Made by a program: the position numbers and the translations under genes. Shown piece after piece: positions 6,450 through 27,006 of a stretch of 64,000 nucleotides of DNA. Numbering within the stretch: position 1 is the first letter of the stretch; the number at the start of each line of letters is the position of its first letter. The stretch is from a virus: IMG/VR virus record IMGVR_UViG_3300000115_000005. One strand, written 5' to 3'. The notes beneath the pieces are model-generated. The model saw only the letters and a list, made by a program, of their open reading frames with translations. It had not been told where the DNA came from and ran no database searches.

Positions 6450-6763
6450 AAATATTTTTTTCCTTTATCATCAATATAAATGATTTCATCACTTGGATAC
6501 CAACCTCTAACTTTGATTAGCAAATCCGTGACTGAATCATCATCATCATTAAAAAAATTAACCCCATTTACACTATCTATTTCTCTTACCACCTGAGCTC
6601 TATCATCCCACGGTATATGTGAGTGCTTTGAGTTTCTTTTCAACCAATTATCAGAATATATACCAACTATCAAATATTTACCATGTTTAGCAGATTCATC
6701 AAAAAAAGTAATATCAGCTGATGTGAGTGGATTAAATGCACCTGCAACAACAACTATCTTCAT
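6446..6763 (-). CDS. Cytidylyltransferase-like protein (HIGH motif degenerate)
   Basis: GAFNPL...LIVGIYSD...R..VV. Confidence 0.65.
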   Translation of the reverse strand: MKIVVVAGAFNPLTSADITFFDESAKHGKYLIVGIYSDNWLKRNSKHSHIPWDDRAQVVREIDSVNGVNFFNDDDDSVTDLLIKVRGWYPSDEIIYIDDKGKKYL

Positions 6764-7194
6764 ATAAGAATTTCCGGAAAGGCCTCTTGTACAAGTTTTT
6801 TGGTGAGATGTTTTACTTTTAAATCTTTATCAAATAAATGCACAAGGATTCTAGCTTCATCAGCGTGTAAAGATTCAAGAACAACTACTAAAAGTCTCCT
6901 TTGTTTCTCTTCAGTAAGTCCTGGAGCTCTTGATGGGTGGTTCTTTATAAATCTATAAAGTTTTGGTACCTCTAGATTTAAATAACTAAAATTTAAACCA
7001 GCTGGTTCTACTGCCGGTCTATAAGTTGATGGAAAGGACTCTTTATCGAATTCAATGTTAGGATTAAAAGCATATTCTAAAAAGTTAATAAATATTCTAT
7101 CACCAAATTTTCTAAGTAATCCTATTCTTTCTTTTTTAGTTTCACATTTATCAAAATCTTCAAATATCTCGGAATATAATTTTTCAGAACTCAT
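6760..7194 (-). CDS. Conserved T4-like hypothetical protein
   Basis: KLYRF...LESLHADEA...LVQEAFP pattern, typically found next to rnh. Confidence 0.65.
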   Translation of the reverse strand: MSSEKLYSEIFEDFDKCETKKERIGLLRKFGDRIFINFLEYAFNPNIEFDKESFPSTYRPAVEPAGLNFSYLNLEVPKLYRFIKNHPSRAPGLTEEKQRRLLVVVLESLHADEARILVHLFDKDLKVKHLTKKLVQEAFPEILI

Positions 7195-22208: not shown

Positions 22209-22368
22209 TTTTTTTACACCGAGTTTTCCCTATCATGTTTCGGATAGATGCTTGATGCTGAATCTAATACAATCATAACAACTCAAATTCTTAAAATCTT
22301 TATAAATTAAGACTGATGCACCAGTTCTATTCTCTTACGAGGTAGACGTTTTCTTAATCTATGAGTCC

Positions 22369-22397
22369 ATTCTATATGAGTATGTATAAAATGTCAA
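22369..22397 (-). promoter_or_regulatory. Early sigma70-type promoter
   Basis: TTGACA-17-TAGAAT-GGACTCATAG. Confidence 0.85.
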
Positions 22398-22734
22398 CAG
22401 CTAATTTCAATTACTTCTAGTACCTGTTGTTGTTGTAAAAGTACTACAAGTACCACGAAAACCATGAAGTACCATCATAACATAGAGTGGCCTAAGTGTG
22501 AGGTAAAGTCCCAAAGATACTACGAAAAAAGGTACCGAGTGATTTTTCCACCGGAAAAAAATTAAGTGGTGCTTTAGTGGAGGGAATCAATTTTCGACCA
22601 GAGTAAAACAAAATCTAAGGATCACTAGGGGGTCTGTCGTGCTGGGGTGGGTAACTCTGCCAACTGTATATGGGGGGCTGCAGCGACCATGTAGCTTGCC
22701 TACCGACCGAAAAAAGACTCTTCGGCCGAAGTAT

Positions 22735-23007
22735 TCAGGATCTATTTTGAACACCGTAGTCCATGAATCCGTTTGTACCACACCACCAGTCCCAAGCTTG
22801 GGTCTGTGTCTTGAATGGGCCATGTGGACCTGGATCGGCATCTTGACCGGCATCTATGATCCAATAATCGCCGACCGCATGGTCTTGGACAATGATTGGA
22901 TTCCATGGACCGGAATCTTTAGATGGTTGGTAGACCACATCATGGTCACCTAGTTGATCTTGAATGAAACCACTGGTAGGTAATGTTGGATGGTTAATCT
23001 GTATCAT
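22735..23007 (-). CDS. Hypothetical early protein (GC-richer segment)
   Basis: AGGA RBS; HGPF.T...A motif. Confidence 0.55.
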   Translation of the reverse strand: MIQINHPTLPTSGFIQDQLGDHDVVYQPSKDSGPWNPIIVQDHAVGDYWIIDAGQDADPGPHGPFKTQTQAWDWWCGTNGFMDYGVQNRS

Positions 23008-23082
23008 TATATCTGTCCTAGTAAAATTAAGAGAGCCTGTAAGGCATCGGTGTTTTGTATAATTAAATCCATGTTTATCTCC

Positions 23083-23415
23083 TCAAGCGCTAACTATGGC
23101 TTCCCTATAAGTACATCTTTCAAGTATTTCACAAAATCTATCATAGCGGATTAGATTTTCATCATCCGTATCAGCACGGAAATCTTCCGCATTTAAAGCT
23201 CTAGGGTCAATTAAATCAAATAAAAAGTCCTCAAGGCCTCTGAGGGTCAAGCAAGTGATTTCATCTTCGGTATAAATTGCCTCTCCGGATCCTTCTGCAA
23301 ATACATTTACAACATCAAGTGATTCAGCAATAATATCACCCAACATTGTGGCATCATTTAATGGAAGATTTCTAATTAAGTAATCTACGGAGGTGAGGTT
23401 TGTAACTGTAAGCAT
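23083..23415 (-). CDS. Acidic early hypothetical protein
   Basis: AAGGA RBS, own promoter. Confidence 0.65.
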   Translation of the reverse strand: MLTVTNLTSVDYLIRNLPLNDATMLGDIIAESLDVVNVFAEGSGEAIYTEDEITCLTLRGLEDFLFDLIDPRALNAEDFRADTDDENLIRYDRFCEILERCTYREAIVSA

Positions 23416-23448
23416 TTAGTGTTTCCTTTTATGTTTGACTATGATTCC

Positions 23449-23477
23449 ATCCTAATGGACATTGCCCCAATTGTCAA
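23449..23477 (-). promoter_or_regulatory. Early promoter
   Basis: TTGACA-17-TAGGAT-GGAATCATAGTCAAAC. Confidence 0.85.
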
Positions 23478-23482
23478 GCGTT

Positions 23483-23587
23483 TTATACTATAATAAGAGC
23501 ATATAAAAAGCTTAATACTGTAACATATACAGGCCAATAAAAATAAAGGGAAGCACAGAATGTAGCAAATACAATTAACTTAAACAT
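23483..23587 (-). CDS. Hydrophobic 34-aa peptide with its own promoter
   Basis: MFKLIVFATFCASLYFYWPVYVTVLSFLYALIIV; GGAG RBS. Confidence 0.6.
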   Translation of the reverse strand: MFKLIVFATFCASLYFYWPVYVTVLSFLYALIIV

Positions 23588-23619
23588 TTAAAACTCCATA
23601 TTTGTTTGACTATGGGTCC

Positions 23620-23648
23620 ATCCTAGAGGACATTGCCTGAAATGTCAA
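23620..23648 (-). promoter_or_regulatory. Early promoter
   Basis: TTGACA-17-TAGGAT-GGACCCATAGTCAAAC. Confidence 0.85.
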
Positions 23649-23651
23649 GCA

Positions 23652-24110
23652 TTAACCTCCTTTTTGGTCGAACTTATAATCAACAATATCATGGAATGCT
23701 TCTCGCATCACATCAAGTTGTTGGCCAAAAAATTCACGCTGTTTGGTTAAACGGGTGAGCCTCTTTTGGTCTTTTACAGAATAACGAGAGCGGCCGCTAT
23801 AACAATCATCAATTCGTTTAGTGAGGCGGTTATAGTTAGCCTCTAAATGGTCGACCACATCATCCCATGTAGCTTTATAAAAACTAGCTTTAGGCTCTGG
23901 AAAACCATTGTCTACTCCATGAACCACTTGGCTGGCGATTTGTGCTACAGCTGTTGATCTTTCACGGATTTGAGTCAAATGACCATTATATGGCAAAGCA
24001 ACTATAGCATTAGCTGTGTCAGTATGCTCACGAATGAAGTTGCTAATTGTTGATGTACCAACCTCTACCGAGAGATTGTCCAAGATTTGATCGTTAACAG
24101 AATGACTCAT
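23652..24110 (-). CDS. Early hypothetical protein
   Basis: AAGGAG RBS. Confidence 0.65.
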   Translation of the reverse strand: MSHSVNDQILDNLSVEVGTSTISNFIREHTDTANAIVALPYNGHLTQIRERSTAVAQIASQVVHGVDNGFPEPKASFYKATWDDVVDHLEANYNRLTKRIDDCYSGRSRYSVKDQKRLTRLTKQREFFGQQLDVMREAFHDIVDYKFDQKGG

Positions 24111-24124
24111 TTATTGCTCCTTAA

Positions 24125-24258
24125 AATAAAAAAATGAGAGAAAGTGCCAGTTTAAATTCCAGTTGATGTTTCCAGATATCCTAAGATAAGCAGTTAATCT
24201 AAACATCATTCAGTTAAATTCTAATCTAATTCAGTTAATCTAACTTTCTCTCTACTGT
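24125..24258 (-). ncRNA. Candidate sRNA locus 3 with five AACUG repeats
   Basis: 10-bp closing stem 24136-24145/24243-24252, U-tract, promoter immediately upstream. Confidence 0.6.
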
Positions 24259-24264
24259 GGAACC

Positions 24265-24293
24265 ATTGTATCTGAGTATTGCCCAATTGTCAA
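24265..24293 (-). promoter_or_regulatory. Early promoter
   Basis: TTGACA-17-TACAAT-GGTTCCACAG. Confidence 0.85.
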
Positions 24294-24406
24294 CCACTAT
24301 TTTAATCTTTTTTGCCTCTGTTGTAAAATAACAACGCAGTCAGTAAACACTAACACCAACACTCAATGACACCCGCCACATTAGTGCGATTCCCCACGAA
24401 TAAACA

Positions 24407-24601
24407 CTATACCCCACAAGCATCTAATCTATCACGATTTAAGAACTTAATTTGTTTTTTTAGCTTCTTCTTAATTTGATTATGACTATTTCTCACAATA
24501 GAATATCTAATGACCCTTACTTCTTCTTCATAGTATATTTTTTTAAATTTTTTAATAAAATTTTGATCTCTGATTCTACTAAACATGAATTGCCCTTTCA
24601 A
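24407..24601 (-). CDS. Small basic hypothetical protein
   Basis: ORF. Confidence 0.45.
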   Translation of the reverse strand: MKGQFMFSRIRDQNFIKKFKKIYYEEEVRVIRYSIVRNSHNQIKKKLKKQIKFLNRDRLDACGV

Positions 24602-24606
24602 GGTAA

Positions 24607-24978
24607 TTAATATGGGTAAATAGTGAAATTCGTAGCATTATGAATTGTGCAATGTTGAGGTGCTCTCGAAACGGATTTTGTTTTTCCACGATAACGAATA
24701 CGAGCACGGCCTCTTGTAAAACTTATCACTCTTTTAGAGAATCGAGCAAAGATGGAAATATGTTCTAATTCAAATTGACTTTTTAATTTAGGTTTTGTCT
24801 CAAAATGCTCTTGATACTCTTTTGAAAATCCAAAGATTTCTACATTTGCTCTAACAGCTTGAGCAATATTTTTGAATAACTCAAACTCTGACTTATTTAA
24901 ATAATCTAGATCAACATCAAAGCGATCATCACATTTAATGCCTGCTTTGTGTACACTTGAATATAAAATTTTGTTCAT
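24607..24978 (-). CDS. Early hypothetical protein
   Basis: AAGGA RBS, own promoter; RIRYRG motif. Confidence 0.6.
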   Translation of the reverse strand: MNKILYSSVHKAGIKCDDRFDVDLDYLNKSEFELFKNIAQAVRANVEIFGFSKEYQEHFETKPKLKSQFELEHISIFARFSKRVISFTRGRARIRYRGKTKSVSRAPQHCTIHNATNFTIYPY

Positions 24979-25008
24979 TTCTGTCCTTGTTTATTTGACT
25001 ATGAAACC

Positions 25009-25037
25009 ATTATATGGGCACATTGCCCAAATGTCAA
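25009..25037 (-). promoter_or_regulatory. Early promoter (perfect consensus)
   Basis: TTGACA-17-TATAAT-GGTTTCATAGTCAAA. Confidence 0.92.
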
Positions 25038-25040
25038 GCT

Positions 25041-25271
25041 CTATCGAGCCTTCTTATAAAAGAGTTTACGAACGGTGCCAATTTTAACATGGCCCACTTT
25101 TTTTACAGCCTTTACCTGTGCCTTAGATGTAACAGATCCACCAAAAGCAATAGCTTTAATAATGTCATTACTACCAGCATTTTCCAACTTACGAACCATC
25201 TGAATTAAGAGTTTCTCTCTTAATGTTACCTCAAATTTCAAGGTGTTGTTTAAATTTCCTGTTCTTTTCAT
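25041..25271 (-). CDS. Small basic early protein
   Basis: ORF behind promoter. Confidence 0.55.
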   Translation of the reverse strand: MKRTGNLNNTLKFEVTLREKLLIQMVRKLENAGSNDIIKAIAFGGSVTSKAQVKAVKKVGHVKIGTVRKLFYKKAR

Positions 25272-25302
25272 AATTTCTTTCTATTTGATTAACTATGAAA
25301 CC

Positions 25303-25331
25303 ATTGTATAAGTTGGTTGCCTAAAAGTCAA
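25303..25331 (-). promoter_or_regulatory. Early promoter
   Basis: TTGACT-17-TACAAT-GGTTTCATAG. Confidence 0.85.
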
Positions 25332-25353
25332 GCGTGTTGTGAAAATGTTACAC

Positions 25354-25389
25354 AAAAAAAATGCTTGACAATTCAGTAACTGTCAAGCA
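25354..25389 (-). terminator. Terminator-like hairpin whose arms are TTGACA boxes
   Basis: TGCTTGACA-N10-TGTCAAGCA followed by T8. Confidence 0.6.
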
Positions 25390-25411
25390 AGATGGTAGTG
25401 TATTAGCAGTA

Positions 25412-26346
25412 TTATACTTTTGTATTATATCTTTGAGTAGTTTGAGTATTTGGTATTTCTCTTTCAGTTGTCATAAAAGGAATATCTAAAGGTGCATCCC
25501 TATCACGTTTTCTACGCCATAAAAAATATGTAATGATTGCTGATAGAATACTAAGGCATACTAATACAATTACGATTGTATAATCCAGAGTAAAATCATA
25601 ATCAGTAAGTAATGAATTCATGACATTTCCATTTCTTGTTGATCGGCATCATTTGCCATTTGTTGTAGGGTTAATTCAAATTCTTCATTTCGGATAAATT
25701 CTATTTCAGCAATCATTGTGGCGAAATCAGCCTCAATTTGATCCGTACGATTTTCTTCCGCAATTACATTCAGTTCCTGATTAATCTTGGATATGTCAAG
25801 GGATTTCTTTTGAGGAGTTTCAACATTTTCGCTGGTTCTCGCTTTTTGTATTTTCATGGTTCTCACTTTTTACTGGTTCTCACTTTCTTCCACCACTCTG
25901 CATTTTCCTGACCTATTTCGCTGAGCTTATAATTTCTAGTTATCATTTTACCATTAAAATCCACATAAGAAATGGTTTCATATTCTTGCTCTGGCTCGGT
26001 TCTCGCTTTTTGTGAGTTCTCACTTTTTGTATTACCTGTATTCTCGCTCATTGTACAAATTTCTTATCAATGGCTGAAATATCTACCCAAGCGTGGAACA
26101 ATTCAATTGCTTCTCTTAATGGCATATTAAAAGCATTTGATACTGTAGCTGGTGTCTTAGCTAAATGAATCTCACCGAGATCATCTACCTTGTTTAAAAA
26201 CTGAAATACATCATTTACGGTGTAATGATTGTTAGATTTACTGATCATTTTTTCTCCTGAGTAATGAAAAATGTTAAACATAATGATATGAAAACAATTG
26301 CAAATCCTACGATCAATCCTGATAATGCGGAAAATAAAAATTCCAT
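25412..26346 (-). other. Run of small early ORFs (25412-25621 TM, 25618-25866, 25863-26051, 26048-26248, 26245-26346 TM)
   Basis: Chain of ATGA-coupled ORFs. Confidence 0.55.
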
Positions 26347-26355
26347 TTTAACTCC

Positions 26356-26739
26356 TTATCTTAAATAAGCTGGGCCAGTCCAGCGAACACCATTAAAATT
26401 ACCATCAAGAACATTTCCTCGTGGTGCGTTTCTAGCTGGTTTTGACCAACCTGCGGCTTTGAGAATGTCACCTTTTTTGAATAGTTTATCATCACCTGTA
26501 GCAACAATAAAACCCCAGCAAGAATGGCCTGCGATAATTTTCCAATACTTCTTGCCTTTTGCAACTGATAGTCTGCTTTTAAATTCTGCTCTTTTATCTT
26601 CGATTTGATCATCATGAATGTCATATCTATTTGTCCAACCAACATAATCATCAGCAATTACGTCTTTAAGATTTTCAACAGCACCATCTAAAAGACCTTT
26701 TGCTACTTCATTTAATTCAGCTTCATTTATTATCTTCAA
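26356..26739 (-). CDS. Conserved phage early protein
   Basis: GDILKAAGWSKPARNAPRGNV motif, widespread in phages; GGGAG RBS and TTG start. Confidence 0.7.
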   Translation of the reverse strand: MKIINEAELNEVAKGLLDGAVENLKDVIADDYVGWTNRYDIHDDQIEDKRAEFKSRLSVAKGKKYWKIIAGHSCWGFIVATGDDKLFKKGDILKAAGWSKPARNAPRGNVLDGNFNGVRWTGPAYLR

Positions 26740-26772
26740 TTTAAAACTCCCGTTTGTTTAGTCTATGAAACC

Positions 26773-26801
26773 ATTGTATAAGCTGGTTGCCCAAATGTCA
26801 A
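26773..26801 (-). promoter_or_regulatory. Early promoter
   Basis: TTGACA-17-TACAAT-GGTTTCATAG. Confidence 0.88.
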
Positions 26802-26820
26802 GCACAAAAAAAAGACTGTA

Positions 26821-26946
26821 TCATTTATGCAACACAGCCTTTCTTAATCTCTTATTTGATTGCCTTTTCAGACATTTTTTCCATTTTCTCGATAATGTAT
26901 CGGTAACCACTTTTGTCCATCTGCGACTCGAAAAATTCTTTTTCAT
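26821..26946 (-). CDS. 41-aa highly basic peptide with its own promoter
   Basis: MKKNFSSRRWTKVVTDTLSRKWKKCLKRQSNKRLRKAVLHK; GGGAG RBS; terminator-like hairpin over the stop codon. Confidence 0.6.
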   Translation of the reverse strand: MKKNFSSRRWTKVVTDTLSRKWKKCLKRQSNKRLRKAVLHK

Positions 26947-26972
26947 AAAAACTCCCGATTGACTATGATACC

Positions 26973-27001
26973 ATCTTATAGATTGATTACCGAATTGTCA
27001 A
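26973..27001 (-). promoter_or_regulatory. Early promoter
   Basis: TTGACA-17-TAAGAT-GGTATCATAGTCAA. Confidence 0.85.
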
Positions 27002-27006
27002 GCATT

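Follow-up and report, generated by a model that had tools for sequence, protein, structure and literature searches.

A candidate small structured RNA gene behind a repeated early promoter in uncultured marine T4-like phages

Short sequence elements repeated in an RNA and read by a protein are known from the trp and hut leaders of Bacillus, in which TRAP and HutP, respectively, read repeated triplets in an attenuation leader. Among T4-type phages, T4 itself makes the small, stable, non-coding RNAs C and D (species 1 and 2), which are early, have no assigned function and are processed out of the tRNA cluster transcript. To our knowledge phage-encoded regulatory RNAs are few, and almost none is known from T4-like phages of the dominant ocean bacteria. 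T4-type phages also carry a composite promoter/stem-loop arrangement, the PeSL, in which a repeated early promoter and a preceding stem-loop stand at the borders of exchangeable units in the hyperplastic region (PMC2839356; PMC4122927).

The stretch of DNA analysed here (64,000 nucleotides, referred to as the window) is part of a lytic phage with most genes on the minus strand, and its ribonucleotide reductase is nearest to those of Pelagibacter and other marine phages. From 22.4 to 27 kb it contains an early region of small ORFs, each with a promoter of one family, gcTTGACAtttgGGCAA-N-TAnAATGGnnnCATAG. Eight early promoters at 22360-27005 share a consensus of about 45 nt that reaches into the beginning of the transcript (GGnnnCATAG); a hairpin of GTTGT/ACAAC type precedes several of them, and the whole is a PeSL-like cassette region as in T4-type phages. 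One of these hairpins, at about 24336-24314, stands before the promoter of the RNA unit described below, as at the border of a PeSL cassette. That promoter (-35 TTGACA at 24293-24288, spacer of 17 nt, -10 TACAAT at 24270-24265) agrees with the consensus at 11 of 12 positions, and transcription would start near A 24258. In the window the end of the upstream gene and this promoter are about 260 bases further apart than in most relatives (24336-24606), and the additional segment includes a 64-aa lysine-rich ORF (24601-24407) without family; in relatives the promoter lies almost directly behind the upstream gene. Elsewhere, a 12-bp terminator-like hairpin with U8 behind it (25362-25389) consists of GCTTGACA, which forms the -35 region in the early promoter family, present twice in inverted orientation, and a 114-nt segment at 22093-22206 matches the Rfam tRNA model with 30.5 bits, where ARAGORN makes no call.

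The original prediction, made from the letters of the window, was of a promoter-driven structured RNA unit with a final stem and U-tract, and the analysis supports this. Its components were confirmed: the promoter at 24265-24293, a 10-bp stem (arms 24252-24243 and 24145-24136) around about 97 nt, five copies of AACUG at plus-strand positions 24148, 24160, 24191, 24211 and 24232 (all on the minus strand), the 12-mer CAGTTAATCTAA in two copies (24191-24202 and 24232-24243) and the trailing U-tract. An inner helix, which had been offered as possible, proved real by its covariation in relatives. The features of the locus are as follows.

24265-24293, minus strand: early sigma-70-type promoter of the repeated early family gcTTGACAtttgGGCAA ... 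TAnAATGGnnnCATAG, conserved in all related loci
24243-24252, minus strand: 5' strand of stem P1, GAGAGAAAGU, covarying with the 3' strand in three versions
24209-24242, minus strand: J1/2, 34 nt with no proven partner, carrying two UUAGAUU and two UAACUG (AACUG at 24236-24232 and 24215-24211)
24164-24208, minus strand: P2 domain, in which UGAUGUUU (24208-24201) pairs with AAACAUCA (24171-24164), with the third UAACUG (24195-24191) in an internal loop and a mini-hairpin UAUC-UUAG-GAUA (24188-24177)
24146-24163, minus strand: J2/1, 18 nt, ACUGG-AAUUUAA-ACUGGC, with the last two motifs at 24164-24160 and 24152-24148
24136-24145, minus strand: 3' strand of P1, ACUUUCUCUC, closing the 97 nt with the 5' arm
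24123-24135, minus strand: U-tract A U7 A U4 directly behind P1 (U7 at 24134-24128), a putative intrinsic termination site or small-RNA 3' end
23652-24122, minus strand: ribosome-binding site AAGGAG (24122-24117) and a 152-aa ORF (ORF152) with its ATG at 24110, function not assigned

Taken by itself, the window gives a mixed picture. Five AACTG fall within 89 nt against about 0.1 expected (the 64 kb hold 82 minus-strand copies), and a five-fold cluster was reached in none of 200 shuffles; about ten other 5-mers also form five-fold clusters somewhere in the window, and the AACTG cluster is by itself only moderately significant. The single-sequence fold of the unit is no more stable than shuffles (z = -1.13), the region has a G+C content of 28%, and thermodynamic folds of the AU-rich unpaired strands are ambiguous. 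P1 is likewise AU-rich and encloses 65-145 nt in its different forms, unlike a textbook terminator hairpin, and a terminator scan of the window did not list P1 and the U-tract among its sites. The decisive support for the unit is its conservation and covariation in relatives, since the window alone would not settle the matter.

Relatives were reached through the downstream gene. ORF152 has 50 metagenomic homologues with 56-100% identity, and one metagenome scan yielded 23 loci, 19 of them with enough upstream DNA for the unit to be checked. The unit stands upstream of the ORF152 homologue in all 19, with identity of the ORF152 protein dropping to 56-63% across these loci, and it is carried as well by two identical IMG/VR contigs, L144 and L146. 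The original prediction had staked its reading on the repeats being kept in relatives, and the unit is conserved in the 19 loci and both contigs. Its count of five AACUG holds in part: ACUG after A or U is invariant at four positions in all forms (one of them is UUACUG in the short form described below), and the fifth copy, which lies in the internal loop of P2, occurs in the longer forms and is missing from the short one. The motif-bearing strands are the best-kept part of the unit. J1/2 is identical in 10 loci in which the first 138 bases of the ORF are 74-83% identical and its third positions 59-65%, and identity in J2/1 is 78-100%. By a covariance model the unit is single-copy, with one in the window, one per locus and no second copy in either. 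A variant at L142:113-246, from which the 5' strand of P2 is absent as well as repeats one and two, scores 55 bits against about 100-120 for the other units; the loss apparently occurred through recombination between two copies of UAGAUUAACUG.

Beyond these loci, searches returned nothing related. Cultured-phage records gave no homologue (megablast, tblastn of ORF152, and blastn of the unit with chance matches only), no ORF152 relatives were found in IMG/VR, a gapped pattern of three motifs met only unrelated coding repeats there, and a search of IMG/VR with two conserved words returned only L144 and L146 besides chance matches. A 19-mer matched bacterial and archaeal genomes four times, each match being due to chance and none showing the element, and Rfam gave no match for the window at E up to 10 or for the short and long forms up to 1. 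By these searches the unit belongs to no catalogued RNA family and occurs in neither cultured phages nor bacterial genomes. A likeness to Cas12a-type repeats (AAUUU..ACUG..UAGAU) was considered and dropped, since the hairpin that defines such a repeat cannot form.

Comparison of the loci revealed three forms of the unit's body, a short one of about 95 nt, that of the window (about 130 nt) and a long one of about 175 nt. In the short form P2 is AAAC-GAAA-GUUU, a 4-bp stem with a GAAA cap. The P2 helix of the long form has 8 bp and bears an internal loop, in which another UAACUG lies, together with a 13-bp P3 and a small hairpin of CACC/GGUG; the window form corresponds to it, but with P3 trimmed to the UAUC-UUAG-GAUA tetraloop hairpin. 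The insert of the long form, about 60 nt and richer in G+C, occurs in L127, L136-L138 and L141 (e.g., L138:585-650); it consists of the 13-bp stem and the inner hairpin with a varying loop, has no Rfam match and may be a module of its own. A coding role was considered for a 32-aa ORF within the unit and rejected, the ORF not being conserved: it starts in P2, which the short form replaces.

P1 occurs in three fully complementary versions, that of the window, GAGAUUAGU/ACUAAUCUC in most loci and UUGAGAAAGU/ACUUUCUCAA in L144/L146. RNAalifold recovered P1 and P2 unaided, with double-sided changes in 6 of 9 P1 pairs and 3 of 4 P2 pairs. In the full structure as named here, pairing is found in 94.2% of cells, a share that falls to 38-47% once the partners are shifted against each other; 11 pairs show double changes, and the covariation score was reached by none of 500 shuffles. 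Behind these counts stand only three versions of P1 and three forms of P2, hence few lineages and few independent events, with parts mixed by recombination. G.U pairs arise through C to U changes in P2 of L136 and L137, and occur in P1 of L132 and L141 where the stem runs into the U-tract. A run of U7-U11 lies behind P1 in every locus, including L144/L146, in which the sequence that follows is unrelated. The unit shows two features expected of a stand-alone small-RNA gene, namely its own conserved promoter and a conserved structure with compensatory changes, and that the structured RNA is real can be regarded as highly probable.

The same comparison bears on whether the element could act as DNA, either as regulator sites on one face of the helix or as an AT-rich origin or unwinding region like T4 oriF and oriG. 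In the window successive AACTG copies start at intervals of 21, 20, 31 and 12 bp, which come close to multiples of 10.5 bp, and the low G+C content of the region would suit unwinding; sites two helical turns apart had been put forward in the original prediction. However, the three forms place 18, 51 or 99 bp between the motifs on either side of P2, so that phasing is not kept, and every motif lies on the transcribed strand. The tolerance of G.U pairs, the compensatory changes in P1 and P2 and the replacement of P2 by a GNRA-capped hairpin are, as read from the alignment, signatures of RNA and not of DNA. A DNA-level element is therefore very improbable.

The order of promoter, repeats, terminator-like stem with U-tract and ORF mimics that of type III toxin-antitoxin loci, and the RNA might on this ground be one partner of such a pair, or a pseudo-ToxI decoy, directed against an endoribonuclease, which would be either the product of the ORF behind it or an abortive-infection toxin of the host that is like ToxN. 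The original prediction had raised this possibility, which fails on several points. The repeats are 11-12 nt and irregularly spaced, without an array of tandem units of about 36 nt, and Tandem Repeats Finder reports nothing at 24125-24260. ToxN-type toxins are alpha/beta proteins, whereas ORF152 is predicted to be all-helical (five helices, pLDDT 64) and has no Pfam, PHROG, PADLOC or Atlas match; its predicted fold likewise has no match in the PDB. The RNA unit is found without an adjacent ORF152 in L144/L146, where another phage has a different downstream gene. Nor is the motif depleted in phage genes, a depletion that had been proposed as a check: AACTG occurs 157 times in the phage against 152 +/- 12 expected. 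A type III pair in cis is largely refuted, and the reading in all its versions hardly credible.

Members of the ORF152 family are either about 150 aa or 132-138 aa long, the difference being a basic segment of 20 residues (105-124 in the protein of the window), and their ends are nearly invariant, starting with MSH and ending with DYKFDQ. A likeness between the N-terminus of ORF152 and a 119-aa ORF in L146 was set aside as weak and not significant (E = 0.034).

ORF152 has no promoter of its own and would therefore be reached only by read-through of P1 and the U-tract. This arrangement underlies the main rival explanation, that the unit is a factor-dependent, cis-acting attenuator: in a 5' leader that senses a factor, a protein in the manner of TRAP or HutP, or another ligand, bound to the repeated motifs would decide whether P1 forms and so set read-through into the early ORF. 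It would account for the absence of a promoter from the downstream ORF in both contexts found, with the ribosome-binding site about 5 to 20 nt past the U-tract, for the conservation of P1 followed immediately by U7-U11, and for the invariant unpaired strands, which call for a sequence-specific partner. The second of the two contexts speaks against it. L146 is syntenic with the window (nrdA 79% identical), and in L144/L146 the unit, with its promoter and U7, stands before a 135-aa ORF that is unrelated to ORF152 (hhalign probability 0.2%) and homologous to the window ORF at 24607-24978, upstream of the unit (43.5% identity, E = 1e-22). The functionally related downstream genes of riboswitch and attenuator regulons are thus not seen, the genes in the two contexts being unrelated. 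In addition, no antiterminator pairing is conserved (the option offered by the majority P1 is missing in the window and L144), and the ribosome-binding site is never sequestered. An attenuator private to the 23652-24110 gene, as the original prediction had considered, is unlikely given that the unit also fronts a different gene; the more general factor-sensing leader is a possibility of some weight, which we judge doubtful.

The unit lies directly behind the conserved CATAG of the promoter, in the 5' leaders of different early genes. With a different gene behind it in the IMG/VR relative, it is best viewed as a portable early RNA unit and not the private leader of one gene, and its changed position would fit cassette exchange at repeated promoters.

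A small RNA acting by base pairing was also considered, in which the unpaired strands would serve as seeds for host mRNAs with CAGUUAA-like sequences and P1 with the U-tail as a chaperone-binding module. The 34 letter-perfect nucleotides of J1/2 are what might be expected of a seed facing a conserved target, and the terminal stem and U-tail resemble, by analogy, the terminal stem plus U-tail that make up the 3' module of chaperone-dependent small RNAs. Target scans within the 64-kb window, which cover the phage only, nevertheless found nothing better than shuffled queries: J1/2 reached -20.6 kcal/mol against -19 to -25 for shuffles, and J2/1 -19.2 against up to -21.6. A seed repeated four- to five-fold would also be unusual, and base pairing in trans is improbable on these grounds. 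Within the ORF at 6760-7194, positions 6981-7000 could pair almost perfectly with J2/1 if G.U pairs are allowed; the energy is within the shuffle range and the match is probably due to chance.

The explanation that we favour, with a probability of roughly 0.5, is that the unit encodes a small, structured RNA made early, the first of a family that is not yet catalogued and belongs to uncultured marine T4-like phages, and that the unpaired strands of this RNA bind a factor. In the scheme proposed, host RNA polymerase would start at the repeated early promoter, and P1 would form between the 9-10 bases at the start and the 9-10 at the end of the transcribed unit. At the U-tract after P1 some of the transcripts would end, each as a free RNA with its ends locked together, and the remaining transcripts would read through into whichever small early ORF follows. 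The scaffold of P1 and P2 would display the two nearly invariant unpaired strands with four (in the window, five) UWACUG(R) motifs. The motifs sit in stretches without a partner inside the element, and no complement of ACUG exists within the unit. These strands would be the working part; most likely a factor of host or phage that recognizes RNA by its sequence would attach to them in several copies or through several domains, and a candidate role early in infection is that of a decoy, sponge or scaffold. From this architecture we infer an action in trans and the kind of partner, and that the RNA acts in trans through protein binding in one of these roles is proposed tentatively, as a possibility with a fair amount to be said against it. 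The motifs could instead make tertiary contacts or pair mutually: UUAGAUU, in two or three copies, is complementary to AAUYUAA of J2/1, and the only variation in these segments is C/U opposite G (G-C versus G.U), which is compatible with such pairing and proves nothing.

A bolder version of the favoured explanation may be put forward as a speculation that is on the whole unlikely. The unit would then represent a new class of phage early decoy RNA, spread among the leaders of early genes as a promoter-linked mobile cassette; in the first minutes after an abundant ocean bacterium is infected, its four to five UWACUG(R) motifs would soak up a sequence-specific RNA-binding protein or ribonuclease of that host. 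Its nuclease-decoy form is disfavoured, since AACTG is not avoided in the phage's own genes. Apart from the role assigned to it, the unit is small, with a clear scaffold and an unusually well-kept repeated motif, and so offers a ready bait for a partner search. It also indicates that the promoter-flanked cassette exchange of T4-type phages moves RNA genes besides ORFs.

Compared with known systems, the unit shares with the CsrB/RsmZ/RsmY and CrcZ sponges a helix scaffold, several short unpaired motifs and a self-contained gene from promoter to terminator. Its motif, however, is UWACUG(R) and not GGA or the A-rich CA motif. The many GGA of the CsrA sponges of CsrB/RsmZ type are not found, only the GGA in ACUGGAAU being invariant and the others varying or missing from the short form, and the unit differs further in having only 4-5 motif copies, in being phage-borne and early and in matching no Rfam covariance model. 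With ToxI and pseudo-ToxI, decoys that phages can carry, it has in common the order of promoter, repeats, terminator-like element and ORF, but not the tandem repeats of 34-36 nt. Unlike in ToxIN, CptIN and TenpIN, no gene for an endoribonuclease of ToxN/AbiQ type lies directly downstream, and the RNA is not inherited as a pair with a toxin, its downstream gene being exchangeable. The TRAP and HutP leaders likewise have several short repeats in a 5' leader by a terminator, and UAG triplets are a further likeness, whereas the unit lacks the regular triplet spacing of 2-4 nt and a conserved antiterminator, the genes downstream of it are unrelated to each other, and the organisms are unrelated. 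RNAs C and D of T4, compared by description only, are also small non-coding early RNAs of a T4-type phage; the unit differs from them in having its own promoter and stem with U-tract, among small early ORFs. Its closest parallel in genome organization is with PeSL cassettes, in that it shifts relative to the neighbour gene as PeSL shuffling predicts. PeSLs have been described as flanking ORFs, and the cargo here appears to be an RNA with its own closing stem and U-tract.
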